Source: Ruminococcus sp. (GTDB lineage: Bacteria > Bacillota > Clostridia > Oscillospirales > Ruminococcaceae). Taken from it: a DNA stretch of 64,000 nucleotides. The translations under genes and the position numbers were made by a program. Shown piece by piece: positions 3,414 to 31,842 of this stretch. The notes under the pieces are model-generated. The model had not been told where the DNA came from. It saw only the letters and a program-made list of their open reading frames with translations, and searched no databases. The stretch is taken from contig JAISIH010000083.1 in the NCBI GenBank assembly GCA_031262105.1, forward strand, positions 3,219 to 67,218, given 5' to 3'. The stretch's first letter is position 1. Every line of letters begins with the position of its first letter.

Positions 3414-3430
3414 AGGAGTGAGTACACTAA

Positions 3431-3838: not shown

Positions 3839-3947
3839 TCATAATATTCCAAAAACGTCCCGATAATATTAAGCTCCCCGCCGCATCGTTCGTGCGAAGC
3901 GTTTAGGTTTTATATTTTCGGTGAATAATAAAATTGAGGTGTTTAGT

Positions 3948-4553: not shown

Positions 4554-4592
4554 TTAATCGCTTTTTTCAGATAATAAGGGGGTAAAGACACC

Positions 4593-5546
4593 ATGCTTGA
4601 AAAAATTGAAAAACCCGAAATAGAATGTGTTGACCTTAAGCCTAACGGCACATACGGTAAATTTATCGTTGCGCCGCTCGAACGCGGGTACGGACACACT
4701 CTCGGAAACAGCCTTCGCCGCGTTTTGCTCTCAAGTCTGCCCGGTGTTGCCGTTACAAGCGTTAAGATTGACGGGGTTCATCACGAACTTTCGACAATCC
4801 CCGGCGTGAAGGAAGACGTCACCGAAATAGTATTAAACCTCAAGGGGCTTGTCTGCAAGATGTACACTGACGGTCCGAAGACGCTTCATATTGAGGCGGA
4901 GGACGAGCAGGAAGTTATTGCGGCGTCGATTAAGCCTGATGCGGACGTTGATATCTTAGTGCCGGATATGCATATCGCGACACTCGACCACGGCGCGAAG
5001 CTTAACATGGACATAACTATCGACAGAGGGCGGGGATATGTCCCTGCTGAGAAAAACAAGACGCTTTTTAACTTCGGGATTGACGTTATCGCTGTCGATT
5101 CTATCTACACGCCTGTACTGAAAGTACATTATACAGTCGAGGACACCCGCCTCGGACAGACCACGGACTTTGATATGTTAACCCTCGAAGTCTGGACGAA
5201 TGGGGTTATCTCGGCAAAGGATGCAGTCTCAACTTCAGCCAACCTCCTCAATGAACACCTCAGGCTCTTCACAGAGCTTTCCGACGAATCGGTTATGCCC
5301 GAACTCATGGCAGAGAAAGACGAGAAGGGCAAAGAGAAAATACTCGAGATGACCATTGAAGAGCTTGACCTTTCAGTGCGGTCTTTTAACTGCTTAAAGC
5401 GTGCCGGAATCAACACAGTAGACGACCTTATCGGCAAATCCGAAACCGAAATGATGAAGGTTAGAAACCTCGGTAAGAAGTCGTTTGACGAGGTTAAAGA
5501 GAAACTCCTGTCATTGGGGTTCGCGCTTAACACAGAGGAAGAATAA
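4593..5546 (+). CDS. rpoA: DNA-directed RNA polymerase subunit alpha
   Basis: 317 aa. N-terminal assembly domain ([14 protein letters not shown]) and C-terminal domain ([16 protein letters not shown]). Confidence 0.95.
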
Positions 5547-5568
5547 ACTAAATACTACCCGAAGGGGG

Positions 5569-5922
5569 ATGAAAATTTTGGCTGGCTCAAGGAAATTAGG
5601 GAGAGCTACCGATGCGAGAAAAGCTATGCTTCGCGCAATGGTAACCTACCTTTTAGAATACGGCAAGATTGAAACAACCGTTACTCGCGCCAAGGAAGTA
5701 CGTTCCATGACCGAGATTATGATAACTAAGGCGAAGGCAGGCGACCTTCACGCAAGACGTCAAGTCCTCGCGTACGTTACAAAAGAAGATGTCGTTAAAA
5801 AGCTTTTTGAGGAAATCGCTCCCTCATATAAAGAGCGAAACGGCGGTTACACACGGATTTATAAGATAGGTCCGAGACGCGGCGACGCTGCGGAGATGGC
5901 TATTATTGAATTAGTGAAGTAA
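5569..5922 (+). CDS. rplQ: 50S ribosomal protein L17
   Basis: L17 pattern ([18 protein letters not shown]...GGYTRI). The start is set at ATG 5569, after a GGGGG RBS. The longer track ORF overlaps rpoA. Confidence 0.9.
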
Positions 5923-5935
5923 TAGAAAATATAAC

Positions 5936-5976
5936 CATATACACGGTGTTTCTGTATCGGGAACATCGTGTATATG
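5936..5976 (+). terminator. Hairpin terminator after rplQ
   Basis: 15-bp stem (catatacacggtgtt / aacatcgtgtatatg, one G.U pair) with an 11-nt loop, 14 nt after the rplQ stop. Confidence 0.55.
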
Positions 5977-6183
5977 TATTATCTGTTGATAAATAATTAT
6001 GAAATTAAGTTCATTTATTAAACATTGTGTAAATTTTAAAGTTTGTATAACAATTTACTTGTATTTGTTCATATAATATGTTATAATTGATTAAACTAAT
6101 AAAATAAATTAAATGTTTTTTTTGTGTTGCCAAAATTGTAATTTTATAGTTCAAGGATTTGTAATGACGAAAAGAGGAAAAAC

Positions 6184-6369
6184 GTGTTAATCGAAAAGAA
6201 AAATTGCTTAAACGAGGAAGCTCGTAATTACAACCACAAACCTGTTGAAGTTACAACCGGTTTTAGTGAGCTTACTTTTATATATCCTGATGATGAAGAA
6301 ATTATTCCTGACGAGGAAAGATTTATATTTCCCATAGACAAGGTCTTCTCAAGCGGTTATCCTATTTAA
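6184..6369 (+). CDS. Hypothetical small acidic protein (61 aa) in the low-GC island
   Basis: GTG start preceded by AAGAGGAAAAA. A/T-rich codon usage like the following gene. I recognise no motif. Confidence 0.35.
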   Translation: MLIEKKNCLNEEARNYNHKPVEVTTGFSELTFIYPDDEEIIPDEERFIFPIDKVFSSGYPI

Positions 6370-6382
6370 AAAATCATACACC

Positions 6383-6423
6383 CAAACAACGGTTGAAGAA
6401 CAATGTTAGTCAACCGTTGTTTG
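6383..6423 (+). terminator. 14-bp perfect hairpin between the small ORF and the 797-aa gene (possible attenuator or terminator)
   Basis: caaacaacggttga / tcaaccgttgtttg with a 13-nt loop. There is no clean U-tract. Confidence 0.4.
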
Positions 6424-6449
6424 TATTACTATATTAAGGACAGTATCAA

Positions 6450-8843
6450 ATGCCGAATGATCCGATTGGATATAAATTGACCTTCTGTAAAAAGCTCTCA
6501 GCGCTTGATAACCCTGTACCCGGTGTGGCATTTGAATATCTAACATTGGCGCACTTCGATGGGATTTTTATAAATGAAATAAAGTGCGTTAGTGATTATA
6601 AAAAGACGTGTTCGGACATCCTACAAGATGGAATAAAGTGGGGCGACCTAACAGCCGACAAACAGAATAAGTTAAATTTTCTTGCGCATTGCGAAAAACA
6701 GGTCGTAAATATCATAACAGAAAACGTCAATAATGATGTGTTAAGTAATCACGATATGCCGATTATGGTGGTCACACTTTTAAATTTCAGTGATGAAAAC
6801 AATTGCAGAAGCCAAAAAATAAATAGTATAAAGAATGCTCTCCAGAATTATATCGGAAATTTAAGTGTCGATTTTGGGGTTTATATGCCGCTGTCTATAG
6901 AGGATTTAGCAATTGTTTTTAAATCCTATACTCTTGAAAGTATTTTAAAGCTTATTACTAATCTAAGAAATCACAAATGTTTTGCTGACGTTATGAATAT
7001 GTATTCCGTAATTTCTTTAGACACAAATTCTGATAAACCCGCTCAGATCGAGGAAATTAACACTTATATAAAGATTCAGGCGGTTCCCCCGACAAGTTTT
7101 CGCGAAATAGCAGATAATTTACCTTCGGTTACGCCGATTGGTGAAGAACGTAATTATAATGACACTAAAGTTGCGGTCGGAAAATATGATATGTATCATA
7201 GAATATCCATAAAAAACACAATGAACTATTATTTTAATTTATACAGAAATATTCTTGATACAAATTCATGCATTTCAAAAAAGTTAGGCGTGTTATCCAC
7301 AGAAACTATAGTAATTAAACCGCTTAACGAGAGCGGTGAAAAAAATCATTTTACCAACCAATTTGCATTTAGCGGAAATATCAATAAACAAAAAAGTTGG
7401 AATGAATGGTATAGACGATTCGAAGAATGTTGGAATAAAGAGTGGGACAAAGGTAATAAAAGTGAAACTAAGAAAAAATATAAAGAATGGTTCCCTACTC
7501 TTTATAAATTTTCTGGTATGCTTAGTGGTCGTGCTCATCGTATATCACACGCTGTTTCTTCTTATAAGTATTTCGAACCATTTTGGGAATTTATTTCTGA
7601 AATAACGAAATTTATTCCGGAATTTATAAAGAGTGAATCAAAAAGAGAAAACTATAATCGCAGCGTTCTAACTGTAAGTGATGAAATCAGATCATTGATT
7701 ACCGGAATTGACGATGTCTTTTCGACGTCTTTCCATGATTTTGAGCAATCGCAAAAAGATGGGTTATGCGTTCACTCTGCCGGAAAGCTTATGGTTGCAT
7801 ATCGGAATTTTGCTGAATTTTTAGGTAATCAATTATTATCTGTTATAGGTCACGACGGTAGACACATTTATTTTTCAATTGTTTCAGCAATAACAGAGAC
7901 CACAAAAATAAACAGATATGACATTAAAGAGAATAAAACGAATAATACATTCTTAACAATACATATGCCGTTTTCAAATATTTACGATTTTCGTGCGGCG
8001 ATTTTTAAGATTTGCCATGAAATTGGGCATTTAATATACGTCACTGATGCTGAAAAAAGCAGATTCAAGGATATATGTAATGAAGGATTAGAGATAGAGA
8101 GTATTAGATTCAGTAATCCCAAAATAGTACATCAACTTAATAAAATACTTGATGAATTTTACGAGGAATTCGCTGCTGATTACTATGCAATTAAAATATT
8201 AGGGCTTGATGTTCTTTATAGTGATCCAAAGCACGATAAAGATGCTGTTTTGAATCAAATTCAAGAAATATTCATGACTGAACTTAATGATAAACAACGA
8301 GCCGGCGTTAACCTTCGATTCCAAGGTATTCGTTTACTCTTACGCCTTCAACCAATGCTAATAAGGGACAAAAAACATGATTTAAACTTAGACAGTTTAA
8401 TAGCTTGGGCGTATCAACCATCTGATGTAATACAAGAACTACTTAATTCCGTAGCCGAAAATGTTATCCCGGTAATTGGGCAGGTAGGTAGCGCCTCTGT
8501 TATTGTTAAAGAAGCAGTAAAATATGCAACTGACGTTAAAAATGTAGAAGAGTTTATTTACCTCAATACGAATATTAGTGAAAAGATTTTTTCTCCGGCA
8601 GCTCTTTACATTTTAAGGCAAAATGAAGATGTAAAATTAATAAATGACATATATACGATCTTAAATAAAAATAAAAAAGAAAATTCAGAATTTCCTTTTC
8701 AAAATCAAATTAACTTTTTCAAAAGCTATAGGGAGCATTTCTTTGATTATAGAAGCGGGAGCTCTTCATATCGAGATGATGTTGTTCCATTTCGAGATTT
8801 TTTGTTAGCCTTTACCGAGCGCAGAAAATACATAGAACTATGA
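6450..8843 (+). CDS. Large (797 aa) hypothetical protein with an HExxH zinc-metallopeptidase-like module (ImmA/IrrE, M78-like), encoded on a low-GC island
   Basis: Long uninterrupted ORF in strongly A/T-rich DNA. HEIGH lies at nt 8016..8030, and EEFAADYYA at nt 8163..8189 about 49 aa later, resembling the HExxH...ExxANxFA signature. No signal peptide or TM segment is evident. Confidence 0.7.
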   Translation: MPNDPIGYKLTFCKKLSALDNPVPGVAFEYLTLAHFDGIFINEIKCVSDYKKTCSDILQDGIKWGDLTADKQNKLNFLAHCEKQVVNIITENVNNDVLSNHDMPIMVVTLLNFSDENNCRSQKINSIKNALQNYIGNLSVDFGVYMPLSIEDLAIVFKSYTLESILKLITNLRNHKCFADVMNMYSVISLDTNSDKPAQIEEINTYIKIQAVPPTSFREIADNLPSVTPIGEERNYNDTKVAVGKYDMYHRISIKNTMNYYFNLYRNILDTNSCISKKLGVLSTETIVIKPLNESGEKNHFTNQFAFSGNINKQKSWNEWYRRFEECWNKEWDKGNKSETKKKYKEWFPTLYKFSGMLSGRAHRISHAVSSYKYFEPFWEFISEITKFIPEFIKSESKRENYNRSVLTVSDEIRSLITGIDDVFSTSFHDFEQSQKDGLCVHSAGKLMVAYRNFAEFLGNQLLSVIGHDGRHIYFSIVSAITETTKINRYDIKENKTNNTFLTIHMPFSNIYDFRAAIFKICHEIGHLIYVTDAEKSRFKDICNEGLEIESIRFSNPKIVHQLNKILDEFYEEFAADYYAIKILGLDVLYSDPKHDKDAVLNQIQEIFMTELNDKQRAGVNLRFQGIRLLLRLQPMLIRDKKHDLNLDSLIAWAYQPSDVIQELLNSVAENVIPVIGQVGSASVIVKEAVKYATDVKNVEEFIYLNTNISEKIFSPAALYILRQNEDVKLINDIYTILNKNKKENSEFPFQNQINFFKSYREHFFDYRSGSSSYRDDVVPFRDFLLAFTERRKYIEL

Positions 8844-8846
8844 AAA

Positions 8847-8872
8847 AAGAGGCATGGTTAGATATGCCTCTT
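8847..8872. terminator. Bidirectional intrinsic terminator shared by the 797-aa gene (+) and the purH-like gene (-)
   Basis: aagaggcat / atgcctctt 9-bp stem, flanked by an A-run on the left and a T-run on the right. Confidence 0.7.
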
Positions 8873-8919
8873 TTGTTTTATTTTGTTGTTACCTTACTCG
8901 CGGTGTTCCACATGGAACA

Positions 8920-10113
8920 TTAATGATGAAATAATCTTATCCCCGTAAACGCCATAGCCATGTTATATTTGTTACAGGTTTCGATAACGTTGTCGTCGCG
9001 GATTGAGCCGCCGGGTTCTGCAATGTATTTCACGCCGGAGCGATAGGCGCGTTCGATGTTGTCGCCGAAGGGGAAGAACGCGTCGGAGCCGAGGGCGACG
9101 TCTGTGTTTGTTTTAAGCCATGCTTTTTTTGCTTCGCGTGTGAATTCTGCCGGCTTTACCTTGAAGATGTTCTGCCAAACGCCGTCGGCGAGGACTTCGT
9201 CGGAGTCGTCGGAGATGTAGACGTCGATTGCGTTGTCGCGGTCGGGGCGGCGGATATTGTCCGCAAACTGCAGCCCGAGGACTTCGGGGGACTGCCGCAG
9301 ATACCAGTTATCGGCTTTTTGCCCGGCGAGGCGGGTGCAGTGGATTCGAGACTGCTGACCGGCGCCGATTCCGATTGCCTGACCGTCTTTTACGTAGCAG
9401 ACGGAGTTCGACTGCGTGTATTTTAGGGTTATCAGCGAGATTATAAGATCCTCTAATTTGTCGGCGGGGATATTCTTGTTTTCGGTTACGATATTTTGGA
9501 GCAAATCGGCGTTGATTTTAAGTTCGTTTCTGCCCTGTTCAAAGGTTACGCCGAAGACATCTTTTGTTTCAATCGGCGCGGGAACATAGCTTTCGTCGAT
9601 TTTTACTATGCAATACGTGCCTTTGCGCTTGCTTTTTAGGATTTCGAGAGCCTTTTGGCTGTAGCCCGGGGCGATTATGCCATCCGAAACCTCGACCTGA
9701 ATTAGCTTTGCTGTCGATTCGTCGCACTCGTCCGAGAGGGCGATAAAGTCGCCGTAAGATGACATTCTGTCCGCGCCTCTTGCCCTTGCATATGCGCAAG
9801 CTAAGGGGCTTAGTTCCCCGTCACCTGTGAAATAAATCTTACGGAGCGTGTCTGACAGGGGTCTGCCGACCGCTGCGCCGGCGGGGGAGACGTGCTTGAA
9901 GCTTGTCGCGGCGGGTAAGCCTGTCGCCGCCTTAAGTTCGCGGACAAGCTGCCAGCCATTGAACGCGTCGAGCAGATTTATATAGCCGGGCTTGCCGCAG
10001 AGTACCTCTATGGGGAGGGGGGCGGTGTTTGCGGGGGTTGCGTTCGCGTTTGCGGTTTTGACGTAGACTGACGCGGGTTTCTGATTAGGGTTACAGCCGT
10101 ATTTTAGTTCCAT
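8920..10113 (-). CDS. purH: AICAR formyltransferase (PurH C-terminal-domain-only type)
   Basis: 397 aa. Ends with the canonical GSDAFFPFGDNIE...PGGSIRDDNVI...AMAFTGIRLFHH. It lacks the N-terminal MGS/IMP-cyclohydrolase domain. Confidence 0.85.
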   Translation of the reverse strand: MELKYGCNPNQKPASVYVKTANANATPANTAPLPIEVLCGKPGYINLLDAFNGWQLVRELKAATGLPAATSFKHVSPAGAAVGRPLSDTLRKIYFTGDGELSPLACAYARARGADRMSSYGDFIALSDECDESTAKLIQVEVSDGIIAPGYSQKALEILKSKRKGTYCIVKIDESYVPAPIETKDVFGVTFEQGRNELKINADLLQNIVTENKNIPADKLEDLIISLITLKYTQSNSVCYVKDGQAIGIGAGQQSRIHCTRLAGQKADNWYLRQSPEVLGLQFADNIRRPDRDNAIDVYISDDSDEVLADGVWQNIFKVKPAEFTREAKKAWLKTNTDVALGSDAFFPFGDNIERAYRSGVKYIAEPGGSIRDDNVIETCNKYNMAMAFTGIRLFHH

Positions 10114-11544: not shown

Positions 11545-11862
11545 TTAGTCCGGGTAAGCTTCCTTGCTCTGACAGTAGCAGTATGAGTATTCAAGCCCGC
11601 GAACGGTGCGTTCTTTGGTATAGCAGTGCAGACAATAATTGCATTTGACCGGGTCGCTGTCGGTCGAGTCCGCTCTCCTTACGAAGTATGCGCAGGTTTT
11701 TGCTTCATTTGGGGCAACTCTTTTTCCGTCCTCGCCGCAGCCGCCCGCTACCGCGAGGTTTTCAAGCTCATCGTCCGAAAGGGTTATGTATTTATCCGCC
11801 TGTGTCTCGTCAATCGCTATGCCGCGATCACGCGCCTTTTTAATAAGGTCGTCTTTTTTCAT
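11545..11862 (-). CDS. Array member P3 (105 aa)
   Basis: Leader MKKDDLIKKARDRGIAIDETQADKYITLSDDELENLAVAGG. Core: C...CAYF...CNYCLHC...CYC. Confidence 0.8.
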   Translation of the reverse strand: MKKDDLIKKARDRGIAIDETQADKYITLSDDELENLAVAGGCGEDGKRVAPNEAKTCAYFVRRADSTDSDPVKCNYCLHCYTKERTVRGLEYSYCYCQSKEAYPD

Positions 11863-11880
11863 GATAAAAACCTCCTGTGC

Positions 11881-12198
11881 TTACATATAATTAGAATATA
11901 CGCCTATTTTGCAGTAACAATAGCTCATAGGATATGCGTAAACCCTTTCACTATGTTTGCACGAAAGACAGGTACCATCGTTCTCGTCGTCTTTTTTGCT
12001 GTAACTGGAACAGCGTTTTCCCTTGTTTACATCCTCAACTCTTACGCTGCCTTTCGACGGTTGGCATCGATCTATGCCGCCCGCAACCGCTAAGTTTTCA
12101 AGTTCTTCGTCGGAAAGGGTTATGTATTTGTCCGCCTGTGTCTCGTCGATTTCTATGCCGCGTTCACGCGCCATTTTGATAAGGTCTTCTTTTTTCAT
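11881..12198 (-). CDS. Array member P4 (105 aa)
   Basis: Leader MKKEDLIKMARERGIEIDETQADKYITLSDEELENLAVAGG. Core: C...CSSY...CLSC...CYC. Confidence 0.8.
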   Translation of the reverse strand: MKKEDLIKMARERGIEIDETQADKYITLSDEELENLAVAGGIDRCQPSKGSVRVEDVNKGKRCSSYSKKDDENDGTCLSCKHSERVYAYPMSYCYCKIGVYSNYM

Positions 12199-12214
12199 CT
12201 GTTTGTCCTCCTTC

Positions 12215-12532
12215 TTATTGCCACGCTTCCGCGCAGAGGCAGTAATTTTGTACTATGGGGATATCAAGACTCGGCATCAGGGTTATTGTATCAAAGTGAG
12301 TGCAATAGGTGCATTTTAGCCCTTCATTCGACGGCTTCGCGCTGACAAATTTAGTACAGGTTTGCGCGTAGTTAATATTGTCGAGTTTGTGTCTGTATTT
12401 TTCGTTGCAACCCCCCGCGACCGCAAGGTTTTCAAGCTCGTCATCCGAGAGGGCTATGTATTTATCCGCCTGTGTTTCGTCGATCGCTATGCCGCGTTCA
12501 TGTGCCTTCTTGATAAGGTCTTCTTTTTTCAT
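12215..12532 (-). CDS. Array member P5 (105 aa)
   Basis: Leader MKKEDLIKKAHERGIAIDETQADKYIALSDDELENLAVAGG. Core: C...CTKF...CTYC...CLCAEAWQ. Confidence 0.8.
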   Translation of the reverse strand: MKKEDLIKKAHERGIAIDETQADKYIALSDDELENLAVAGGCNEKYRHKLDNINYAQTCTKFVSAKPSNEGLKCTYCTHFDTITLMPSLDIPIVQNYCLCAEAWQ

Positions 12533-16768: not shown

Positions 16769-16907
16769 GCTTGTTTTTAATAATACTTATTTTTCGTTTT
16801 TTGCAAAGGCTGATTTTTTCTTAATACTATTTTTTCGTTTTTTGCAAAATGGTTTTGTTTTTTTGCTTGTTTTTTAATAATACTTATTTTTCGTTTTTTG
16901 CAAAGGG
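16765..16907. repeat. Three tandem copies (two full, one partial) of a roughly 45-bp A/T-rich unit ending in cgttttttgcaaa
   Basis: gcttgttttt(t)aataatacttatttttcgttttttgcaaagg occurs at about 16769..16809 and about 16865..16906. A partial copy (cttaatactattttttcgttttttgcaaaa) lies at about 16819..16848. Confidence 0.85.
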
Positions 16908-17006
16908 GAAGGAAGGGGGGCGGGGGGCAACCTGAGTACAATCTTGTCTCCACGAGTGAACATCTCCACTGTCCTCTTGTTTCCCCCCGCCCCCCTTCCC
17001 TCCCCT
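16904..17006. repeat. 24-bp G/C-rich inverted repeat flanking a 55-bp spacer
   Basis: 16904..16927 (aggggaaggaaggggggcgggggg) pairs with 16983..17006 (ccccccgccccccttccctcccct), 23 of 24 positions. I checked this base by base. Confidence 0.85.
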
Positions 17007-17074
17007 CTGCACTCCCCTCCTAACCCCTCACCCCCCTTCCATGGGCTTGGAAAAATGAATTTTGTTAATCACAA

Positions 17075-22081: not shown

Positions 22082-22513
22082 TTATTCACTTTCTATTAAT
22101 TTTAGAAATTCTTCCGGGGAAACTCCTTTAACTTCGGAGGCGGTGTAGTCTTTTAGGTTGCGGGTAACTATGAATTCGGCGTTTTCTTTCACCGCGCAAA
22201 GCATCTGCAAGCGATCCTCGAAATCTTTGTATTGCGGTTCATCTAAAGCACGTATTGTCATTCCGCTCTCAACCTCGCTGACACGGAACAGATAACAAAG
22301 CCCTAACAAAGTATTTCTGATATTTTTGGGATAATCTATTTTCTTTTTGTCTTTGCTTAAAAGATAAAACATATTCGCAACGCATTGTGTAGTAATAATT
22401 CCGATGAATCTGTGCCGGTGTTTATACTCAATTATCTTCGCGGCGTTCTCATAAAAAGGTTCGCGCCTTTGCGCATAATCCATCAAAACGTCGGTATCAA
22501 TCAATACGACCAT
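22082..22513 (-). CDS. PIN-domain toxin (VapC-like)
   Basis: Starts VVLIDTDVLMDY (first acidic PIN residue). It overlaps the upstream small gene by 17 nt, a typical TA layout. Confidence 0.7.
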   Translation of the reverse strand: MVVLIDTDVLMDYAQRREPFYENAAKIIEYKHRHRFIGIITTQCVANMFYLLSKDKKKIDYPKNIRNTLLGLCYLFRVSEVESGMTIRALDEPQYKDFEDRLQMLCAVKENAEFIVTRNLKDYTASEVKGVSPEEFLKLIESE

Positions 22514-22757
22514 ATTTTCCCTCTAAATATTCCTGTTTAGCTTTGTCAAAGTCAACGTCAGAAACATCAATGTTTTTTATAGACTCTGTCAGCATTTTAT
22601 AACCGAGTTCAACACGATCCTGCTCTTCTTTGGAATAGAGGGGCTTATGGCGGGAGTCAAAACCTTTTCTTAAATCCCTGACGAAATTAAGTATTACAGC
22701 AAGCTTGTTTTGCGGTAAATCCGCCATCTCTGTTACAATTTGTTCTTGATATGACAT
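22497..22757 (-). CDS. Putative antitoxin partner of the PIN toxin (86 aa)
   Basis: Small ORF translationally coupled upstream of the PIN gene. Called on context only. Confidence 0.5.
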   Translation of the reverse strand: MSYQEQIVTEMADLPQNKLAVILNFVRDLRKGFDSRHKPLYSKEEQDRVELGYKMLTESIKNIDVSDVDFDKAKQEYLEGKYGRID

Positions 22758-22768
22758 AATTCCCCTCC

Positions 22769-24133
22769 TTACCTCTCCCCGAGAGGTTTATACTCTGTTC
22801 GCGGCTGTACGGCTTTGTATGCGGGGCGGATAATCTTTCCTTGGTTTGCAAGTTCTTCCATGCGGTGGGCTGACCAGCCGGCTATCCGCGATATTGCGAA
22901 AAGCGGGGTGTAGAGTTCTTGCGGGAGCCCTAACATACTGTACGCAAAACCGCTGTAAAAATCCACGTTCGCCGAGACGCCCTTATAAATCTTCCGATGT
23001 TCGGATATGGCAATCGGCGCAAGCCGCTCGATTAGCTGATACAGCGCATACTCTTCCGCAAGATCCTTCTCCTTCGCCAAAACCGCAACCGCCTTCTTAA
23101 GAAGGTTCGCACGAGGATCAGACAGGCTGTATACTGCGTGACCCATGCCGTAGATTAACCCCGAACGGTCGAAGCCGTCTTTGCCCAGCAGTCTTAGAAG
23201 GTAATTTTTTACGGCATCTTCGTCCCGCCAGTCGGTGAGGTTCGATTTCATATCCTCGAACATTTGTGTTACTTTTATATTCGCGCCGCCGTGCTTCGGT
23301 CCCTTAAGGCTCGCGAGGGCGGCGGAGATTGCCGCGTAGGTGTCGGTTCCCGACGAGGTTACAACGTGGGTTGTGAAGGTCGAGTTGTTGCCGCCGCCGT
23401 GTTCTGCATGAAGCACAAGCGCAAGGTCTAAGACCGCCGCTTCTGCCTCTGTAAAACAACAATCCGGGCGGAGCATATGCAGGATATTCTGCGCGATGGA
23501 ATATTCAGGAAGCGGGTTATGTATAAAGAAGCTTCCGCCGTCGATATAATAATTCTTCGCCTGATAAGAATAAACCGAAATCAGCGGCATCAGCGCAATC
23601 AGCTCGAGAGACTGGCGGAGGACGTTCGGGAGGGATGTATCGTTCGGGAAGTCGTCGTAAGAAAATAGCGTTAAAACTCCCCTCGCAAGCGCGTTCATAA
23701 GGTCGTCGGAGGGCGATTTCATTATTACGTCGCGGACAAATGTCGGCGGCAGGGTTCTAAATGAGGAAAGCAGCCCCGAAAACTCGTCAAGCTCTGTATC
23801 GGTCGGGAGCTGCCCGAAAAGAAGCAGATAGCAGGTTTCTTCAAACCCGAAACGCTTATCCGCCAAAAACCCGGCGGTAATATCGTTTACGTCGATTCCG
23901 CGGTAAAAAAGCCGCCCTTCGGAGGGGATCATCTTTCCGTTTTCTTCAATATATGACTCAATTTCGGAGATCTCCGTAAGTCCGGCTAAAACGCCTTTGC
24001 CGTTAAGGTCGCGCAAACCCCGCTTTACGTCATATTTCGTATAAAGCTCCGGGTCGATATTTGAGTTCCCGACACAAAGCTCTGTATATTTCTGGATAAG
24101 CGGCGATACGTCCGAGAAGGTGAAGTTGAACAT
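22769..24133 (-). CDS. gltA: Citrate synthase (citrate/2-methylcitrate synthase family)
   Basis: 454 aa. Catalytic-region motifs HAEHGGGNNSTF and GMGHAVY. AAGGAGG RBS. Confidence 0.9.
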   Translation of the reverse strand: MFNFTFSDVSPLIQKYTELCVGNSNIDPELYTKYDVKRGLRDLNGKGVLAGLTEISEIESYIEENGKMIPSEGRLFYRGIDVNDITAGFLADKRFGFEETCYLLLFGQLPTDTELDEFSGLLSSFRTLPPTFVRDVIMKSPSDDLMNALARGVLTLFSYDDFPNDTSLPNVLRQSLELIALMPLISVYSYQAKNYYIDGGSFFIHNPLPEYSIAQNILHMLRPDCCFTEAEAAVLDLALVLHAEHGGGNNSTFTTHVVTSSGTDTYAAISAALASLKGPKHGGANIKVTQMFEDMKSNLTDWRDEDAVKNYLLRLLGKDGFDRSGLIYGMGHAVYSLSDPRANLLKKAVAVLAKEKDLAEEYALYQLIERLAPIAISEHRKIYKGVSANVDFYSGFAYSMLGLPQELYTPLFAISRIAGWSAHRMEELANQGKIIRPAYKAVQPRTEYKPLGER

Positions 24134-24340
24134 TACGTTGCCTCCTTTTTTGCAGGTTTATATAGCCATTTAACTTGAAAATCCTAAAGGATTTTCAAGC
24201 GAAAAACAAAGTTTTTCGCTTTTGCGGCACGCCGCAAAAGTTAACGCCTGAGTAGATTCGGCTCGCAAGGCGAGCTACCGCGCTTTGCGCGGTGACTTAA
24301 AAACACCCCGGTGTTTTTAAGTTAATCTACTATACCTATT
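24134..24340 (-). promoter_or_regulatory. About 200-nt highly structured 5' leader of citrate synthase (six perfect hairpins, including an 81-nt four-way junction)
   Basis: Hairpins verified base by base at 24173..24198, 24199..24217, 24218..24239, 24260..24274, 24276..24292 and 24294..24321. An outer stem pairs 24250..24257 with 24323..24330. The region lies between a consensus promoter and the RBS. Confidence 0.5.
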
Positions 24341-24346
24341 CATTTT

Positions 24347-24375
24347 TATTATACACCATTTTTTACAGATTGTCA
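24347..24375 (-). promoter_or_regulatory. Consensus sigma-A-type promoter upstream of the structured leader and citrate synthase
   Basis: On the minus strand: TTGACA (24375..24370), a 17-nt spacer, then TATAAT (24352..24347). Confidence 0.65.
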
Positions 24376-24403
24376 AGCCGCATTTTATAGATTTTTTTGT
24401 AAA

Positions 24404-24440
24404 AAAGGAAAGATACCGCATTTTTCGCGGTATCTTTCCT
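24404..24440 (-). terminator. Intrinsic terminator of surface-protein gene 1
   Basis: 15-bp stem aaggaaagataccgc / gcggtatctttcctt, followed on the minus strand by a T-run. Confidence 0.75.
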
Positions 24441-24459
24441 TAATAAACTTTGGAAGAAG

Positions 24460-27400
24460 TTACTTTGTCTTAGTTGTGGATATCATCATTGTGCCGGCTT
24501 TTTCCGACTCGAAGATGATGTTGCCGTTCTTGTAAAGACCTGCGGAACGGGTTATGCTTCCGTCTGCGCCTTTAACCATGATGTAGATTATCTTGCCGCC
24601 GTTAAAGTCTTCGCAATCCTCGAAGATTGCTTCATCGAGACCGAGAGCTTCGGCACTCATGATATATCTTACATCGGTTCCGAAATCCTTCTTTTGCTTT
24701 GTCTCGAAGGATGCAACGACGGTTGCGGGAGTGCCTGCTGTTGCCGCTTCGATAACTGCGGGGTCGGCGTCAACAACGCCTGTGTAGGTTGCGCCCATTT
24801 CGGAATTTAGGGGGATAACCATTCTGAGTACCAAATTGCCGTCGGCGTCTTCAAAATTCTGAGCAACAGTCACGGTCATTCCCTCGGGAACTGCCGCCAC
24901 GAGCTTATCGATTGCGGTTGCTGAAAGCCCTGCAACCTCCTCGTCAACGTTTACTGTAACCTTTGTTTCGCCCTTCTCCGCCGCGATTTCAGCCGCCGCT
25001 TCTACAGCCGCCGCCGTCGCCGCGGAATTGAGAGAGCCGGACTGGTTAACCGCCGCGTCTACTGTGCCGTTATTGTTTAAGGTTGCGGATGCGTTGCCGG
25101 ATTCAAAAGTTTCAGCTACGCCGCCGTTGTCGTTTGAACTGCCGGTTGAGCCGCTGCCGCTACTTGAACTGCCGGTTGAGCCTGTGCCGGTTGACGGTGC
25201 TGCGGGAACTACAGGAACAGGTGAGGGTGCGGGTGAGCCGCCCGAAGATGAGCCGCTTCCGCTTGAACTGCCGCCGCCCGAAGATGAGCCGCCGCCGGAA
25301 GTTGAAGTTGTAACAACGATGCTTATGCTTTGTGATGAAGCTTTATATAGATCGCTTCCTGCGAAGGAGAATTCAATTGTCTGATAGCCGGTTGCCGCTG
25401 TTCCGATTGTTGCTATGCCGTATTGATTTTGAACTGTGCCGTTTACGGTTGTGGTTATTGCGCCGGAAACTATATTGCCGTTTTCGTCATAGACTGTTGC
25501 GATGATCTCGTAGTTGCCGGTATTTACCAAGAGTGTGTTGCCGGAAGGCAAGCCGGTAACTGTGATTGTTGTTTTAAGCGGGGTAACTTCGGGGACTTCC
25601 GCTTCGGTAACTGTAACGGTTGCTGTGCCGGATTTGGTTGTGTCAACCGTTGATGTTGCCGTAACTGTGAGGGTTGAAGCTGTTTCGTCAGCGGCTACGA
25701 TAAGCACGCCGGCAGAAGTTATCGAACTCTTTGTGCCGGAAACCGCCCATGTCACAGTCTGCGCGGGGCTGTTCGTGCCGGTAACTGCCGCTGTAAACGT
25801 CTGTGTGCCGCCCTTTTCTACAATTGCCGCCGCCGGGGTTACTGCTACGGAGGTTACTGTTGCGGCGGGGTCGGGATCGGGAACTACGGGGGCAGCCACT
25901 ACTTTATAAACGGTTACGGTTAGGTATGTCGGATCAAATGCAAACGTGTCTTTTGCAAGATCAACCCTTACGGTCGCGCCGTTTGCTACTGTAATATTGC
26001 TGATTGCGAGGGTGTATGTTCCGCCGCCTTCATCTGTTAATGCGCCTTTTGTTGCGCCTGTGAGTGTTACATCTGCTTCTGCCAAGTTAATGTCGCTTGA
26101 AAGTTCAATAGTAAGTTCGGTAGTGGTTGTTGAGCCGCTTACGCCGTTTGCGGTTAAGCTTTCAAAGTCAACCGGTGTGCGGGTGTCTTTATAGACTGCA
26201 ACATCCACGGGTTCATTACTTACATCGAAAACTCCGAAATCGGTTAACGTTAATGTTACATTGCCTTCGGCGGTTACGTTTGTAATTCCGATTGTGTATA
26301 CCGTGCTTGACGTTGCGGTAAGAGTGCCTTCTGTAGCTCCTGTGCCTATAGCTATGTCATTAGCTGTAAGCCCTGTAACTGCTTCACCGAATGTAATCCG
26401 AATGCCTGTACTGTCAGCTGTTCCGGTTGCGCCGCCTACTTGTACGGCTTCAAAAGTTACCGGTGTAGCGTCAGCCTGTACAGTTACTTGTATTTTATAG
26501 ATGAGTACCGATTCGTCTTCTGCGGTGACTTGTATCCAAACGTATTGTCCGTTCTCAATCGCTTGTGACGTCCAACTGCCATAAGATCCCGGGTCTGTGT
26601 TGCCCGTGGTATAAGCATATTTTACGTCAGCAAATTGACTTGTTTTTACTGCTAAAAATTCAGTCACAGTAGCATTTGCACTAAGTATTGAGACCGTTCC
26701 TGTTTCTGCCGCATCATATGTCTCAGCAGGGTCTCCGAGGGCAATTGCGGTGCCCGCGAGGGTTGCGGAAGTAATTGTCGCATCATCGTCGGCTTCTACC
26801 GTTACGGTTGCGGCAGTCGAGGTTTTATCTTCCGCGCCGTCTGAACTTACTACAACATAGTAGTAATGAGGTCCTACGGCGAGGTCTGTCGGGAGTGCGT
26901 AAGTAGCGGAGTTTGTGTCGTTAATAGTTGCACCGTCACCTGTATTTGTATCACTGTCGCTATACCATTGATAATTAGGAGTTGCGCCATTTGAAACTGT
27001 TGCAGTAACTGTGAGGTTTGCGGTTTCGCCATGTGTAACGGTTATTGTACTTGCCGGTTGACCGCTTATTGTGATTTCGGGTGCGGCACCAATCACCAGA
27101 GAAAATGTTCCTGTCGCCTCTGTTCCGTTAAGAGTCATAGTATGTGTAGTTGATCCTGCTGCTGCTGTAGCTCCGACAGTAAGCGTGAGTGTGCCGTCGC
27201 CTTGTCCGTCTATTGTTACAGCTGCCGCCGATACCTCGGACGGTAACGCGGGATCAAAGGTCGGGGTGTATTCTGATGCGGATATATTCGTTGTGTCCAC
27301 AGCGTAAGTTAGTTCGCCGCCTATACCTGCGGTTGCTGTGCCGGTTTGTGTTGCGGCGATGGAGACTGTGGGTACCGCATTAACCGTCACGGTTACGGCA

Positions 27401-28086
27401 CTTGAGGTCGCTGTTGCGCCTGATGTGCCTGAATCGCTTACTACAACATAGTAGTAATGATTACCTACGGCGAGGTCGTTGGGGAGTGAGTAAGTGGCAG
27501 TCGTTGCGCCGTCAATGGGTGTGCCGCCGGTTGCATCTGTATCTTCGTCGCTATACCATACATAACTAAGTTCTAAGTCATCCGGTGTAGGATCAACGGT
27601 AACTGTGAGGTCTGCTGTTCCGCCCGCTGTAATGGTTGCTCCTGACGGACCGGTTAAGGAGATACTGGCTTCAGAAATAACTACATCAAATGTCGCCGTT
27701 ACTTCATTAATTGTAAGTGTAACATTTGTAGTTCCTGCGGCTGCTGTTGAGTTATCTACAGTAAGGGTAAGTTCGCCTGTAAATACGTCTGCATTATTTG
27801 CAATGGTTACTTTACTGTCGGTGTTTGCAATAGTTACGCCGTCCGGCAATGTTACAACCGTAACAACATATTCCGCGGCTTCCATATCCGTTGTGGTCAC
27901 GGTATAGGTTAGAGTTCCGCCTATCCCTGCATATACTGTTTCAGTTTGTGCGGAGACACTTGCACTGCCTGCCGCCGCGAGTTTAAGTCCAAAATCTATA
28001 CCCCCCGGCAAAGCGCCTGTGAAAAGGCTTAGGGCGAGGGAGAATGCGCAGAGAATTGCTAATAATCGTTTCCTTGAAAGTACCAT
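24460..28086 (-). CDS. Large secreted cell-surface protein, paralog 1 (1208 aa): Thr-rich Ig-like repeats, Gly/Ser linker, conserved C-terminal domain
   Basis: Signal peptide MVLSRKRLLAILCAFSLALSLF. Repeated beta-rich modules (..YQWYSD..ATYALPTDLAVGPHYYYVVV..). One Big_2-like module. A GGGSSSGGGSS linker. The roughly 220-aa C-terminal domain is shared with paralog 2. Confidence 0.85.
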   Translation of the reverse strand: MVLSRKRLLAILCAFSLALSLFTGALPGGIDFGLKLAAAGSASVSAQTETVYAGIGGTLTYTVTTTDMEAAEYVVTVVTLPDGVTIANTDSKVTIANNADVFTGELTLTVDNSTAAAGTTNVTLTINEVTATFDVVISEASISLTGPSGATITAGGTADLTVTVDPTPDDLELSYVWYSDEDTDATGGTPIDGATTATYSLPNDLAVGNHYYYVVVSDSGTSGATATSSAVTVTVNAVPTVSIAATQTGTATAGIGGELTYAVDTTNISASEYTPTFDPALPSEVSAAAVTIDGQGDGTLTLTVGATAAAGSTTHTMTLNGTEATGTFSLVIGAAPEITISGQPASTITVTHGETANLTVTATVSNGATPNYQWYSDSDTNTGDGATINDTNSATYALPTDLAVGPHYYYVVVSSDGAEDKTSTAATVTVEADDDATITSATLAGTAIALGDPAETYDAAETGTVSILSANATVTEFLAVKTSQFADVKYAYTTGNTDPGSYGSWTSQAIENGQYVWIQVTAEDESVLIYKIQVTVQADATPVTFEAVQVGGATGTADSTGIRITFGEAVTGLTANDIAIGTGATEGTLTATSSTVYTIGITNVTAEGNVTLTLTDFGVFDVSNEPVDVAVYKDTRTPVDFESLTANGVSGSTTTTELTIELSSDINLAEADVTLTGATKGALTDEGGGTYTLAISNITVANGATVRVDLAKDTFAFDPTYLTVTVYKVVAAPVVPDPDPAATVTSVAVTPAAAIVEKGGTQTFTAAVTGTNSPAQTVTWAVSGTKSSITSAGVLIVAADETASTLTVTATSTVDTTKSGTATVTVTEAEVPEVTPLKTTITVTGLPSGNTLLVNTGNYEIIATVYDENGNIVSGAITTTVNGTVQNQYGIATIGTAATGYQTIEFSFAGSDLYKASSQSISIVVTTSTSGGGSSSGGGSSSGSGSSSGGSPAPSPVPVVPAAPSTGTGSTGSSSSGSGSTGSSNDNGGVAETFESGNASATLNNNGTVDAAVNQSGSLNSAATAAAVEAAAEIAAEKGETKVTVNVDEEVAGLSATAIDKLVAAVPEGMTVTVAQNFEDADGNLVLRMVIPLNSEMGATYTGVVDADPAVIEAATAGTPATVVASFETKQKKDFGTDVRYIMSAEALGLDEAIFEDCEDFNGGKIIYIMVKGADGSITRSAGLYKNGNIIFESEKAGTMMISTTKTK

Positions 28087-28161
28087 TTTTAAGTCCTCCT
28101 ATTATGTACTATAATTTATTTACTTTACTTTTAAAGTAAATTTATAGAATTGTTTAGAGTA

Positions 28162-28191
28162 AGTTTAACATATTAAAGCTATATTTGTCAA
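28162..28191 (-). promoter_or_regulatory. Putative extended -10 promoter of surface-protein gene 1
   Basis: On the minus strand: TTGACA (28191..28186), an 18-nt spacer ending in TGT, then TAAACT (28167..28162). Confidence 0.45.
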
Positions 28192-28314
28192 TACTTGAAT
28201 GAATGTTTTGGTAAATTTCAACAAGTGTTTTTTTTTTTTTTGTGCATTTTGCACAAATTCGAGGTTTAAATATATCATTATTCGACAAAATTCGCGCTAT
28301 TTTTCGCTGTAATA

Positions 28315-28351
28315 AAAAAAGATACCACACTTTTCGCGCGGTATCTTTTTT
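28315..28351 (-). terminator. Intrinsic terminator of surface-protein gene 2 (paralogous to the one at 24404..24440)
   Basis: Stem aaaaaagataccac / gcggtatctttttt. The mismatch becomes a G.U pair in the minus-strand RNA. A T-run follows. Confidence 0.65.
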
Positions 28352-28365
28352 GCTTTATACTAATA

Positions 28366-31300
28366 TTACTTTGTCTTAGTTGTCGAAATCATCATTGTGC
28401 CGGCTTTTGTTGACTCGAAGATAATCTGTCCGTTTTTGTAAAGACCGGCAGAGCGGGTTATGCTTCCGTCTTTGCCCTTAACCAAAACGTAGATTATCTT
28501 GCCGCCATTAAAATCTTCGCAATCCGCAAAGAGGGAAGAATCGAGACCGAGAGCCTTGGCGTTCACGATATATCTTACGTCGGTTCCGAAATCCTTCTTC
28601 TGGTTCGTCTCAAAGGACGCAATTACATTCGCGGGGGTTCCTGCTGTCGCCGCTTCGATAACTTCGGGGTCGGCGCCCACAACGCCTGTGTATGTGTGCC
28701 CCATATCGGCTTTCAGGGGGATAACCATCCTTATAATCAGTTCGCCGTCGGTGTTTTCAAAATTCTGCGCGATTGTCGGGGTTATTCCTTCGGGAACTGC
28801 GTCCACAATCTTCTTAATTGCGCCTGCGGAAAGCCCCTTGACATCTTCGTCAACGTTAACTGTAACCTTCTCTTCGCCGTTTTCAGCCGCGACTTCCGCC
28901 GCCGCCTCTACAGCCGCAACCGTCGCCGCGCTGTTTAGCGAGCCGGAGGGGTTAACCGCCGCGTTAACTGTGCCGTCATTGTTTAAGGTCGCTTGGGCTT
29001 TGCCGGAGGAGAATGTTTCGGCTACGCCGCCGTTGTCGCCCCCACTGCCCGAGCCGGTCGAGCCGCTACCCGAGCCGCTACCGCTATTGCCGGTCGAGCC
29101 TGTGCCGCTACCTGTGCCGGTGTCGCCGGTTGCCGGAGGGGTTGTCGGAACGGGCGAGGGTGCGCCGCTTGAACTGCCGCCGCCCGAACTGCCGCCGCCC
29201 GAAGATGAGCCGCCGCTACCCGAGCCGCCGCCGCCCGAGCCGCTTCCGCCGCCGCCTGACGGGTCTGACGGGGTTGTAATCTCTTTGAATGTTGCCGTCG
29301 CTGTTATATTGCTTTGGGGTTTGAATGTTATCACTTTATCGGTTAGGGTTAACGCTGTCGGGAGGGTGTTTCCTGTTATAGTCCAGTTTGTAAACTCGTA
29401 GCCCTCTCTTGTTTCGGCTGTGATAGTTACAGTTTCGTCCGCTGTCGCCGTTATTACGTCGGAGGTTCCGCCGACAACCGTTATTGTATATATTACCGGG
29501 ACTAACTTATAATTTGCCGCGAGTGAAACGTTTGTTCTGCCCATTGTAAAAGTTGTCGAAGTCGCTGTCGGGTCGGCTAAGGTTACGCCGCCGGTTAAAA
29601 CTGTCCAGCCGTCGAAAACCATGCCTTCGGCGGGTTCGTTCGCGATAATCGTTACGGTTGTTCCTGCCGCCGCCGATGTCGGGGAAGCCGCGCCGTCGGT
29701 AATCGTTACGCTGTATGTCGTGGGGATAACTACAGGCGGAATTACAATAACGGGGGCGGGTTGCACGATAACGGTTACAACATTTGATATTTCATATGCA
29801 TATTCACCGCCCTCGTTAAATACTATGAGTGCAGTGAAATAATACGTACCCGCTGTGAGGTCTGTCGGGATTGCGAGGGTTGCGGCGGTTGCACCGACGA
29901 TCGTTTCGGAATTAACGCCGTCGGGAGACGTGTCCATTGCCCACATATACGTGAGTGTTCCTGCTGTTGAGAGCGTTGCTTCGACAGAGAGGCTTCCGGT
30001 TATACTGCCCTGCGTGACGGTTGTTGATGCTGCCGGTTGTGTTATAATTTCGATTACGGGGGTGTTGGGGTTTTTATAAACGACTGCGGTTTGGCTTGCC
30101 GGGCTGAATGTATAGCCTGCTTTCGCGAGGGTAACAGTTACCGTCTCGCCGTTTGCGACTGTAATGTTGTGGATTGGGACGGCGTATAAACCGTCGTTGT
30201 TATCGACATAACTTCCGCCTAAGTCTTTTGATGCGCCTGTTATTGTTATGTCGTCTGCCGTTAAATCAATATTTTTATCGAGTTGTATTCTGAGTGCGTC
30301 TGTATCCATCGTGCCGTCATAGCCGCTAATTTGCGAGAGAGACGTGAACTCAATCGCCGTGTCTTTATAAACCGCAACGGTCAAAGGCGAATTGTTTACA
30401 TCATAGTTTCCGAAATCGGCTACAGTAACCGTTACATTGCCCTCGCTGACGCCGGTTACGCCGAGTGTCCATGTTGTGTCTTCAAGCGTGCCTTTTGTTG
30501 CAGAGCCTGTGCCGTTTGTTATGGTTATTTTATCTGAGGTAAGCCCGGTTACAGCGGGGTCGAATGTAAGGACAATTGCGGTCGTGTCGGCAGTTCCGGG
30601 ATCGCCGCCGGATTGCGCGGCAGAAACTGTTGAGGAGCGAATATGCGAGAATGTCGGGGTAATTCTGATATAGCCGGAGGCGTTTGCATCAGCCGCTACA
30701 ATTGTATATGTTGTTGTGCCTGTTACGTTCCCTGAGTTGCTCCCTGTTATCGTTGCCGGAGGAGAAGCCACTCCCGAAAAGGACAGCGAGTCTGCCGCGC
30801 CGGCTACGTCTGCGAGGGTATAAGATAATGTTATTTGGTCGCCGGCTTTGCCGAATTTGTTTCCAACGTTACGATTGTCTCCGGTTTCATTGCCGACCGG
30901 TGTGCCAAAGTCAACATGATAAACTGTGATTCTGGCGCTTTTTGCGCTTGCGGCGGAATTCCCCGAATATGAAACTGTAAGTGTTACTTCCTCACCATAG
31001 GGCCAATATGCCTCTGATTGAAGGTCGGAGCTTGAACCTATTACGCTTCCGCCTTTGCTCCATGTGTATGTAGCGGAGCCGAGGGGGTTATTGAGACCGC
31101 TGATATTTGGGGTAAGTGTGCCGCCGTTGGGATCAACGTTGATTGAAAGTGTGCCGGTGAGGGTGGGGAGGGCGGCTGTCGCATTAAATTCAACTACAAT
31201 TCTAAGATGTTCGTCATCGGTCCTTGTTACGGTCGCTGTGCTAACCCCGGAAGTCGGCGCAAAGCCGGTTACTGTTGCCGGGAATTTATATGCGTTCAAT

Positions 31301-31842
31301 GCGCCAAGCTCTATTGTTGCGGTGTATACTGTGCCGTACTCGAAGCCGGTGAACTCGTCGGGGGTGGGACTCCATGATATTGTTCCGCCATATCCTGTTC
31401 CATCTACGGTATCATCCGAGCTTCCTCCGCCAACAGGTGAATCTATTGAAATCGGCGCGGCGGTTATCGTATCTCTGTTATCAGTTATATTAATTATAGC
31501 CGTCGGAGCTTCGCCATTACTCATGTTGAAAGTGAATGTATTATCTCCTGTAGGAAGCGTACGTAAATAGGGATAAAGAAACGTAACTACATTATTTTGA
31601 TTTGTGTAATTGCCGGACGCAACTGGTTGACCGCCGTATGTAATGCTTTCTAAAGTATTTTCATCCGGCGCGAGGGTTATGGCTACGCTATCACCGCTGC
31701 TTTTATTGAAGGTTGTTGAGGTGGGCGAAACCGTCGCCACCGCCGAAACTTTAAGTCCGAAATTTATATTAAAAAGGCATAGCGCGAGTATAAATGCGCT
31801 TAGAAATAGAATTACTTTGAATCGTTTTCTTGAAAGTAACAT
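28366..31842 (-). CDS. Large secreted cell-surface protein, paralog 2 (1158 aa)
   Basis: Signal peptide MLLSRKRFKVILFLSAFILALCLF. Shares internal modules, the Gly/Ser linker and a near-identical C-terminal domain (...RSAGLYKNG.IIFES.KAGTMMISTTKTK) with paralog 1. Confidence 0.85.
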   Translation of the reverse strand: MLLSRKRFKVILFLSAFILALCLFNINFGLKVSAVATVSPTSTTFNKSSGDSVAITLAPDENTLESITYGGQPVASGNYTNQNNVVTFLYPYLRTLPTGDNTFTFNMSNGEAPTAIINITDNRDTITAAPISIDSPVGGGSSDDTVDGTGYGGTISWSPTPDEFTGFEYGTVYTATIELGALNAYKFPATVTGFAPTSGVSTATVTRTDDEHLRIVVEFNATAALPTLTGTLSINVDPNGGTLTPNISGLNNPLGSATYTWSKGGSVIGSSSDLQSEAYWPYGEEVTLTVSYSGNSAASAKSARITVYHVDFGTPVGNETGDNRNVGNKFGKAGDQITLSYTLADVAGAADSLSFSGVASPPATITGSNSGNVTGTTTYTIVAADANASGYIRITPTFSHIRSSTVSAAQSGGDPGTADTTAIVLTFDPAVTGLTSDKITITNGTGSATKGTLEDTTWTLGVTGVSEGNVTVTVADFGNYDVNNSPLTVAVYKDTAIEFTSLSQISGYDGTMDTDALRIQLDKNIDLTADDITITGASKDLGGSYVDNNDGLYAVPIHNITVANGETVTVTLAKAGYTFSPASQTAVVYKNPNTPVIEIITQPAASTTVTQGSITGSLSVEATLSTAGTLTYMWAMDTSPDGVNSETIVGATAATLAIPTDLTAGTYYFTALIVFNEGGEYAYEISNVVTVIVQPAPVIVIPPVVIPTTYSVTITDGAASPTSAAAGTTVTIIANEPAEGMVFDGWTVLTGGVTLADPTATSTTFTMGRTNVSLAANYKLVPVIYTITVVGGTSDVITATADETVTITAETREGYEFTNWTITGNTLPTALTLTDKVITFKPQSNITATATFKEITTPSDPSGGGGSGSGGGGSGSGGSSSGGGSSGGGSSSGAPSPVPTTPPATGDTGTGSGTGSTGNSGSGSGSGSTGSGSGGDNGGVAETFSSGKAQATLNNDGTVNAAVNPSGSLNSAATVAAVEAAAEVAAENGEEKVTVNVDEDVKGLSAGAIKKIVDAVPEGITPTIAQNFENTDGELIIRMVIPLKADMGHTYTGVVGADPEVIEAATAGTPANVIASFETNQKKDFGTDVRYIVNAKALGLDSSLFADCEDFNGGKIIYVLVKGKDGSITRSAGLYKNGQIIFESTKAGTMMISTTKTK

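Follow-up and report, generated by a model that had tools for sequence, protein, structure and literature searches.

A double-cloverleaf hairpin array in a Ruminococcus citrate synthase leader is probably a small inserted mobile element

The citrate synthase gene gltA (PF00285, 454 aa) lies on the minus strand at 22769–24133, with its ATG at 24133, in the 64-kb stretch of DNA analysed here, which we call the window. It is preceded by the Shine–Dalgarno sequence AAGGAGG at 24141–24147 and by a TTGACA-17-TATAAT promoter at 24348–24376 (TTGACA at 24376–24371, TATAAT at 24353–24348), both on the minus strand. A first-pass annotation of the sequence had called this promoter perfect, and it matches the consensus at 12 of 12 positions. 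Further upstream, a gene for a 1208-aa surface protein ends at 24460 (minus strand), and its terminator-like hairpin, a 15-bp perfect stem followed by a T run, occupies 24405–24441 on the same strand and does not belong to the element described below. No ORF of 60 aa or more was found on either strand of the intergenic region 24134–24459. The 1208-aa gene is one of two giant surface-protein genes at 24460–31842, whose products (1208 and 1158 aa) have Ig-like domains, resemble each other in their signal peptides and are nearly identical over ~200 aa at the C-terminus.

The space between the gltA promoter and the Shine–Dalgarno sequence is filled by a run of palindromes, which starts ~15 nt past TATAAT and ends 22 nt before the Shine–Dalgarno sequence, leaving the latter outside. 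All of the perfect inverted repeats reported for this region by the first-pass annotation were found again, over a span of ~170 nt. We place the inserted element at 24163–24332 (minus strand, as are all of its parts), with termini 5′-TAG...CTA-3′ and two cloverleaf modules in inverted orientation. Module 1 (24250–24332; score against its own model (R3), 86.7 bits) is a four-way junction, in which an outer stem of 8 bp, AGTAGATT/AATCTACT (24331–24324 with 24258–24251), encloses three hairpins joined via 1–2-nt linkers. These are H1 (24322–24295), with 13 bp and a 2-nt loop or 12 bp and a 4-nt loop, H2 (24293–24277), with 7 bp, and H3 (24275–24261), with the 6-bp stem GCTCGC/GCGAGC, which is identical in the second copy described below. 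The junction had been put at 24250–24330, which is the right place and off by one or two nucleotides.

An unpaired inter-module linker, CAGGCG (24245–24250), connects module 1 with module 2 (24164–24249). Module 2 is predicted to form a second four-way junction, in which a weak outer stem, TTAA/TTAA (24244–24241 with 24173–24170), encloses H4 (24240–24219; 10 bp), H5 (24218–24200; 8 bp, or 11 bp by borrowing 3 nt from each neighbour) and H6 (24199–24174; 12 bp). The last three hairpins had been taken as free, with stems of 9, 8 and 11 bp. The four-way junction of that layout stands, the stem lengths need correction, and in the predicted fold the array consists of two tandem four-way junctions, not of one junction and three free hairpins. 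Junctions contain 0–3 unpaired nucleotides and loops 2–5 nt, and in the predicted folds of both known copies almost every base of the element lies in a stem. The six palindromes are six different sequences, and the T runs of the element sit in stems, where they are paired with A runs.

The predicted minimum free energy structure of the RNA contains all of these helices and reaches −81.1 kcal/mol, against −51.1 ± 3.9 kcal/mol for shuffled sequences (z = −7.8; 0 of 200 shuffles as good). Folded as single-stranded DNA, the two strands are equal, with −55.1 and −54.3 kcal/mol (z = −10.4 and −9.6), and the window copy has no G-U pair. These results agree with the earlier remark that the stems hint at DNA palindromes as much as at RNA. 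Moreover, hairpin clustering at the gltA leader is far above chance. Only 14 perfect hairpins of 8 bp or more occur in the 64-kb window, 4 of them inside these 150 nt, and the leader, where a stretch of 220 nt contains five perfect hairpins with stems of 7 bp or more, is the largest cluster in 655 kb of window and related loci. An exact identity of 17–18 nt (TTTTTCGCTTGAAAAT..) between the H5/H6 junction and two penicillin-binding-protein genes (window 55335–55351 and L083:8517–8534) was judged to be a coincidence, the matching stretch in these genes coding for an FSLEN motif.

Orthologous gltA leaders were compared at two levels of relatedness. Close relatives are represented by seven contigs from one JGI metagenome (L081–L087; GltA identity 87–96%). 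All seven keep the promoter (CTTGACAA...TATAATA) and the RBS, have a short leader and are without the array. The most similar of them, L081, has a GltA 96% identical to that of the window and the same genes on both sides, and its leader is only a few tens of nucleotides long: TTGACA-17-TATAAT-AAAATTGTGTAACTATAACCGTAAAAAAAGGAGG-ATG, or TATAATAAAATTGTGTAACTATAACCGTAAAAAAAGGAGGCAAACGTAATG. Against this sequence, the window has an extra ~170 nt between TATAATAAAAATG... and ...CTATATAAACC, and the right-hand flank of the insert reads ...CTATATAAACCTGCAAAAAAGGAGG. In addition, none of 80 further loci from species-representative genomes (62–72% identity) has a comparable array upstream of gltA. Because close relatives keep the promoter and a short leader, and the 80 distant loci are without the array, sequence comparison indicates that the array is a lineage-specific insertion in the gltA leader. 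With L081 as the empty site, a putative TA target duplication can be placed at 24333–24334 (left copy) and 24161–24162 (right copy; both minus strand). The duplication at this site is equally compatible with ATA and TATA, since the flank of L081 has diverged, window and L081 differing by 16% at the nucleotide level in gltA.

Other differences between the window and its relatives lie nearby. The two surface-protein genes separate Dus from gltA in the window; a 1452-aa gene lies upstream of gltA in L081, and Dus directly precedes gltA in L082, L084, L086 and L087. Between gltA and a DUF1015 gene, the window (22082–22757) and L084 (5399–6050) carry a gene for a PIN-domain toxin of 143 aa and, upstream of it, a small ORF of 86 aa for the presumed antitoxin. 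Only a remnant is present in L082, and nothing in L083, L085 and L086. This is another presence/absence polymorphism.

A second copy of the element was found by scanning every fetched locus for clusters of perfect hairpins. The only other back-to-back array in the 655 kb is in L084 (GltA identity 88%), where a homologous element of 175–180 nt at 579–758 repeats the eight helices in unchanged order. The start codon (ATG) of an OmpR-type response-regulator gene follows 25 nt downstream. Its second outer stem, AUCCC/GGGAU, has 4–5 bp, is G+C-rich and is clearer than that of the window. The corresponding empty site, ...AATTTGTAAAATTTTATTGCGAGG, is present in L082 and L086, whose flanks are ~94% identical to that of L084; its core is AATTTG-TAA-AATTTT in L082, and L086 has TGA for TAA. 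The filled site of L084 is ...AATTG-TAA-[TACTATTCC ... GGGGATTAGTA]-TAA-AATTTT..., with element ends TACTA...TAGTA. TAA is found on both sides of the element, a clean duplication, versus the single TAA of L082. A consensus scan of the response-regulator leader in L084 could not pin down a promoter. This homologue at a response-regulator gene ties the structure to the insert and not to gltA. A leader class proper to citrate synthase, as had been considered for this array, is supported neither by this comparison nor by the orthologous leaders, which are without the array.

Homology of the two copies is indicated by both their structure and their sequence. A covariance model made from the window copy alone recovers the L084 copy at 56.5 bits (E = 2.7e-13), which is its sole significant match in 638 kb. 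The structure-guided alignment of the two copies comprises 68 pairs, with 99.3% of pair cells standard. Between window and L084, both partners have changed in 30 of the 68 pairs and one partner alone in no pair, and the single G-U among ~134 pair cells of the two copies is terminal. In control alignments, 0 of 500 shuffles reached the observed values, and sliding the partners gave ~43% pairing. Sequence common to both copies comprises GCTCGC/GCGAGC of H3, the core GCGGC/GCCGC of H4 and the A5/T5 run of H1, and 16 of 35 unpaired positions are identical. The first-pass annotation had itself named homologous loci without the structure or without compensatory changes as evidence against its proposal; the orthologous gltA leaders do lack the array, and compensatory changes do exist, but between copies at different loci. 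G-U pairs and one-sided changes are almost absent from these alignments, which speaks against selection on RNA only. Because stems stay Watson–Crick on both strands via two-sided changes, constraint or templated correction may act on folded DNA.

The organisation of the two copies is that of a dimer. With a model of module 1 alone, module 2 is recovered from the opposite strand in both copies, at 24164–24249 of the window (plus strand; 28.2 bits, E = 7e-6) and at 674–758 of L084 (minus strand; E = 1e-7). Both copies are thus inverted dimers built from one cloverleaf module of ~85 nt, which also accounts for their imperfect terminal inverted repeats of ~20 nt. In the window, the terminal arms of 21 nt (24161–24181 and 24314–24334) are 76% complementary, and the ends of the L084 copy, TACTATTCC.. 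and ..GGATTAGTA, match at ~15 of 19 positions. Both copies start and end with TA (TAG...CTA in the window and TACTA...TAGTA in L084), and both targets are A+T-rich (TATAA and GTAAAA, respectively). The terminal sequences themselves are unlike between the copies (TAGTAGATTAAC... in the window versus TACTATTCCATG... in L084).

Known RNA families and signals were also searched. Rfam 15, applied to the element region at E ≤ 10, to the whole window at gathering score and to the L084 copy, returned noise only; its best match, manA-II, scored 27 bits against a threshold of 100 and had 78 model positions deleted. Nothing reached a gathering score. Three candidates were tried and rejected. A tRNA-like element was considered for arms of 12–13, 7 and 6 bp with loops of 2–5 nt, and ARAGORN found no tRNA or tmRNA in the window. 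An intrinsic terminator or attenuator was considered, and no terminator-like site was found on the minus strand between promoter and gltA, where none of the sense-strand hairpins runs into a U tract. A riboswitch or conserved leader of gltA was dropped because the array is absent from 87 orthologous loci, has no Rfam match and has few conserved unpaired positions.

Searches for further copies covered genus-level DNA and several public collections. Genus-level DNA amounting to 171 kb (window, L081–L087 and L234–L236) contains neither a third copy nor a solo module: the 64-kb window holds no second copy, 107 kb from relatives hold none besides that of L084, and the purH-flanking loci of three relatives (11–21 kb each) hold none. 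Individual hairpins, searched in the window with up to 3 mismatches, have no other copy there. Phage and plasmid collections, searched by blastn with both copies, gave chance fragments only, and five scans of viral contigs returned chance matches only. An exact 22-mer had no match in a collection of metagenome contigs that does not include the window's own contig. Exact searches with the GltA and S13 proteins of the window likewise gave no record. The degenerate pattern A4-N10-T4 ... GCTCGC-loop-GCGAGC had at least 120 matches in metagenome contigs, made up of terminators and unrelated repeats, and L084 was not among the matches listed. Among the window ORFs scanned against Pfam, none was recognised as a transposase or another partner gene.

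Several other repeats were encountered during these searches. A G+C-rich repeat of ~190 nt, bounded by CTAG and with 4–5 back-to-back perfect hairpins (e.g. CTAGCAGGCGTTGAAAAAGGCTTTTCAACGCCTGCTAG, CGGGGAGGCCGAGCCTCCCCG and CCCCAAAAAAGCGTGGTTTTTTGGGG), is present with different flanks in at least 6 contigs of one metagenome (Ga0181534_*; L116:1833–1995, L135, L146:36–194, L181:1–130, L182 and L191:606–799). It is unrelated to the gltA-leader element and shows that multi-hairpin repeated elements exist elsewhere. An array of 3–4 perfect hairpins (CCGGCCTTTTTCAAAAGGCCGG, TCGCTCGCCGCAGCGAGCGA, CTCAAAAATATCAGCTAGATATTTTTGAG, ...) recurs in human-gut and viral contigs (L111, L113, L131, L153, L156, L168, L173, L199, L202 and L223) and is probably a phage intergenic terminator cluster. 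The window region 16796–17055, downstream of a 194-aa ORF, contains about two copies (by eye three) of a 56-nt A+T-rich direct repeat. They are followed by a 42-nt G-rich/C-rich inverted repeat (16899–16940 with 16970–17011, 86% complementary), and further G6/C6-rich arms reach 17191. The purine operon of the window contains three 105-aa ORFs at 11545–12532, between purN and the IMP cyclohydrolase gene and without Pfam matches. At this site, the closest relative, L234, has about twenty tandem ORFs of 52–135 aa (3175–9246), also without Pfam matches, and L235 and L236 have none.

We consider the array to be, with fair probability, a palindrome-rich, non-coding, MITE/REPIN-like mobile element of ~170–180 bp, known from two copies, presumably mobile and co-transcribed with gltA. 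According to this explanation, the element would have been inserted, presumably by transposition, at a TA-containing site in an originally short gltA leader, between a sigma-70-type promoter and the RBS, and would now be transcribed as the 5′ part of gltA mRNA. During mobilisation or replication, the hairpins may act as folded DNA, either as single-stranded hairpins or as cruciforms and four-way junctions. Alternatively, perfect stems may originate from intrastrand templated correction. In the mRNA, the element would fold alone as a self-contained 5′ domain and leave the context of the RBS unchanged. The Shine–Dalgarno sequence is predicted to pair partly with codons 5–7 of gltA, and a similar prediction is obtained for the empty allele of L081; therefore little effect on translation is expected. 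The effect of the insertion on gltA is most likely neutral to mildly stabilising, perhaps through protection of the 5′-end.

Some features of the two copies do not sit easily with this explanation. Unlike terminal sequences are awkward for a DDE transposase that reads terminal inverted repeats, and ordinary MITEs have, to our knowledge, no need for six internal perfect palindromes. Moreover, both copies are sense-oriented just upstream of an RBS, which random insertion does not predict and an RNA-level role fits. A bolder version of the mobile-element explanation, which we put forward as a tentative idea with a small chance of being right, assumes an undescribed class of structure-defined mobile DNA in gut/rumen Ruminococcus. 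Its unit would be the inverted dimer of the 85-nt cloverleaf, and the folded single strand or cruciform would be recognised by a structure-specific enzyme, which would not read terminal sequence. Either selection for mobility or intrastrand correction would keep the stems free of mismatches. Such elements would land preferentially just downstream of promoters, where they would donate a self-contained 5′-UTR domain.

Orientation and position of the copies can also be explained at the RNA level. The double cloverleaf could be a portable RNA module, selected as a 5′-UTR device (a stabiliser against RNase J/Y, a processing site or a protein platform) and spread between leaders by recombination or transposition, which would regulate or stabilise gltA and the response-regulator operon. 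Both copies lie in sense orientation, downstream of a promoter region (a presumed one in L084) and 25–30 nt upstream of a start codon, with the RBS outside the fold. The structure has been kept through 30 two-sided changes, and the sense strand scores far above the antisense strand, which suggests strand-specific conservation of loops and junctions. In addition, very stable 5′ structures can stabilise Firmicute mRNAs. We nevertheless consider this explanation unlikely. Selection on RNA only should tolerate G-U pairs, and the ~134 pair cells contain a single terminal one and no one-sided change. Junctions and loops of the sizes given above leave no room for a ligand pocket, the unpaired positions are conserved at only 16 of 35, and no Rfam family matches. 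As an inverted dimer, the element has the same fold on either strand, and sister species do without it at both loci. The argument from orientation has n = 2, with an L084 copy that came from sampling gltA flanks and was found only in this way.

It is very improbable that the array is a cis-regulator specific to gltA, such as a riboswitch, an attenuator or a set of operator palindromes for a TCA-cycle regulator of CcpC/CcpA type. Its position between the gltA promoter and the RBS would suit such a regulator, and palindromes can be operators. However, none of the 7 close and 80 distant orthologous leaders has the array, the close ones having conserved the promoter, and a homologue stands at an unrelated gene. 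The six palindromes differ in sequence and are therefore not a repeated operator, and neither a terminator-like hairpin with U tract nor an Rfam family was found. That the array is not a biological unit at all, as an assembly or amplification artefact or a set of palindromes made in place by template-switch replication errors, is hardly believable: template switching can make perfect inverted repeats and the window is part of a 68-kb metagenome contig, but the eight helices recur, with 30 compensated differences, in an independent public contig that belongs to another species, both flanks align precisely to empty sites, and six independent in-place events yielding one architecture twice are not credible.

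The present results remove a tempting false lead, in that a striking leader structure of a TCA-cycle gene is not a citrate synthase riboswitch. Should the family prove genuine and multi-copy, the element would be unusual among the small mobile elements of Firmicutes, being defined by a nested fold of two four-way junctions. It would then offer a test case for recognition of folded DNA in transposition and for remodelling of a 5′-UTR without harm to the host gene. It would also call for care when RNAs are discovered by covariation, since palindromes at the DNA level mimic RNA covariation.

Several known systems come close to the array. Bacterial MITEs are characterised by a length below 200 bp, lack of an ORF, inverted terminal regions that begin and end with 5′-TA-3′, and insertion into A+T-rich targets with a short duplication (PMC2229807). 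The element shares size, non-coding character, inverted terminal regions, TA ends and A+T-rich target with Correia/NEMIS of Neisseria, RUP of Streptococcus pneumoniae and ERIC, its short duplication being clean in L084 and putative in the window, and, as for these, filled and empty sites are seen between close relatives (PMC2229807). In transcripts that they often share with adjacent genes, bacterial MITEs form very stable RNA structures (PMC2229807). Of the general features of MITEs, the element has the small size (~50–800 bp for MITEs), the lack of coding capacity, the terminal inverted repeats and the filled and empty sites. Another comparable MITE is bcr1 of the Bacillus cereus group. However, known MITEs form one long stem-loop by pairing of their ends, whereas the element consists of local palindromes in two four-way junctions, and its internal stems are conserved by compensation between copies while its terminal sequences differ.

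REP sequences and REPINs, mobilised by RAYTs, which are Y1 transposases of IS200/IS605 type, resemble the element in other respects. REPINs are likewise inverted dimers of a palindromic unit with a spacer. Their hairpins are important in the form of folded single-stranded DNA, and from one subfamily to another the stems change by complementary substitutions (PMC3733652, PMC3337134). A REP unit, however, is a single imperfect palindrome of 20–40 nt, whereas the unit of the element has 85 nt and three perfect hairpins in an outer stem. The GTAG tag of REPs is found next to H1 in the window (aGTAGatta, just 5′ of the hairpin) and is absent in L084 (tGTAAtac). In one survey, REPs with GTAG are reported from Proteobacteria, Cyanobacteria, Chloroflexi and the PVC group, a list without Firmicutes (PMC3733652). 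No RAYT gene was found among the window ORFs scanned, and the copy number of the element appears low in the DNA sampled.

The CIR repeats of Caulobacter and Brucella come close to the element in their RNA model, which has two separately folded arms and a linker in place of pairing between the ends (PMC2229807). Each CIR arm, in contrast, is a long inverted repeat with a GANTC methylation motif and no nested cloverleaf, and these repeats belong to another phylum. The ermC leader, the aprE leader and the SP82 stabiliser have 5′-terminal stabiliser hairpins of Gram-positive mRNAs, which are single, native and not mobile. The element likewise would be stable near the 5′-end and leave the RBS free and, by analogy with these stabilisers, its effect on gltA is likely to be of the same kind.
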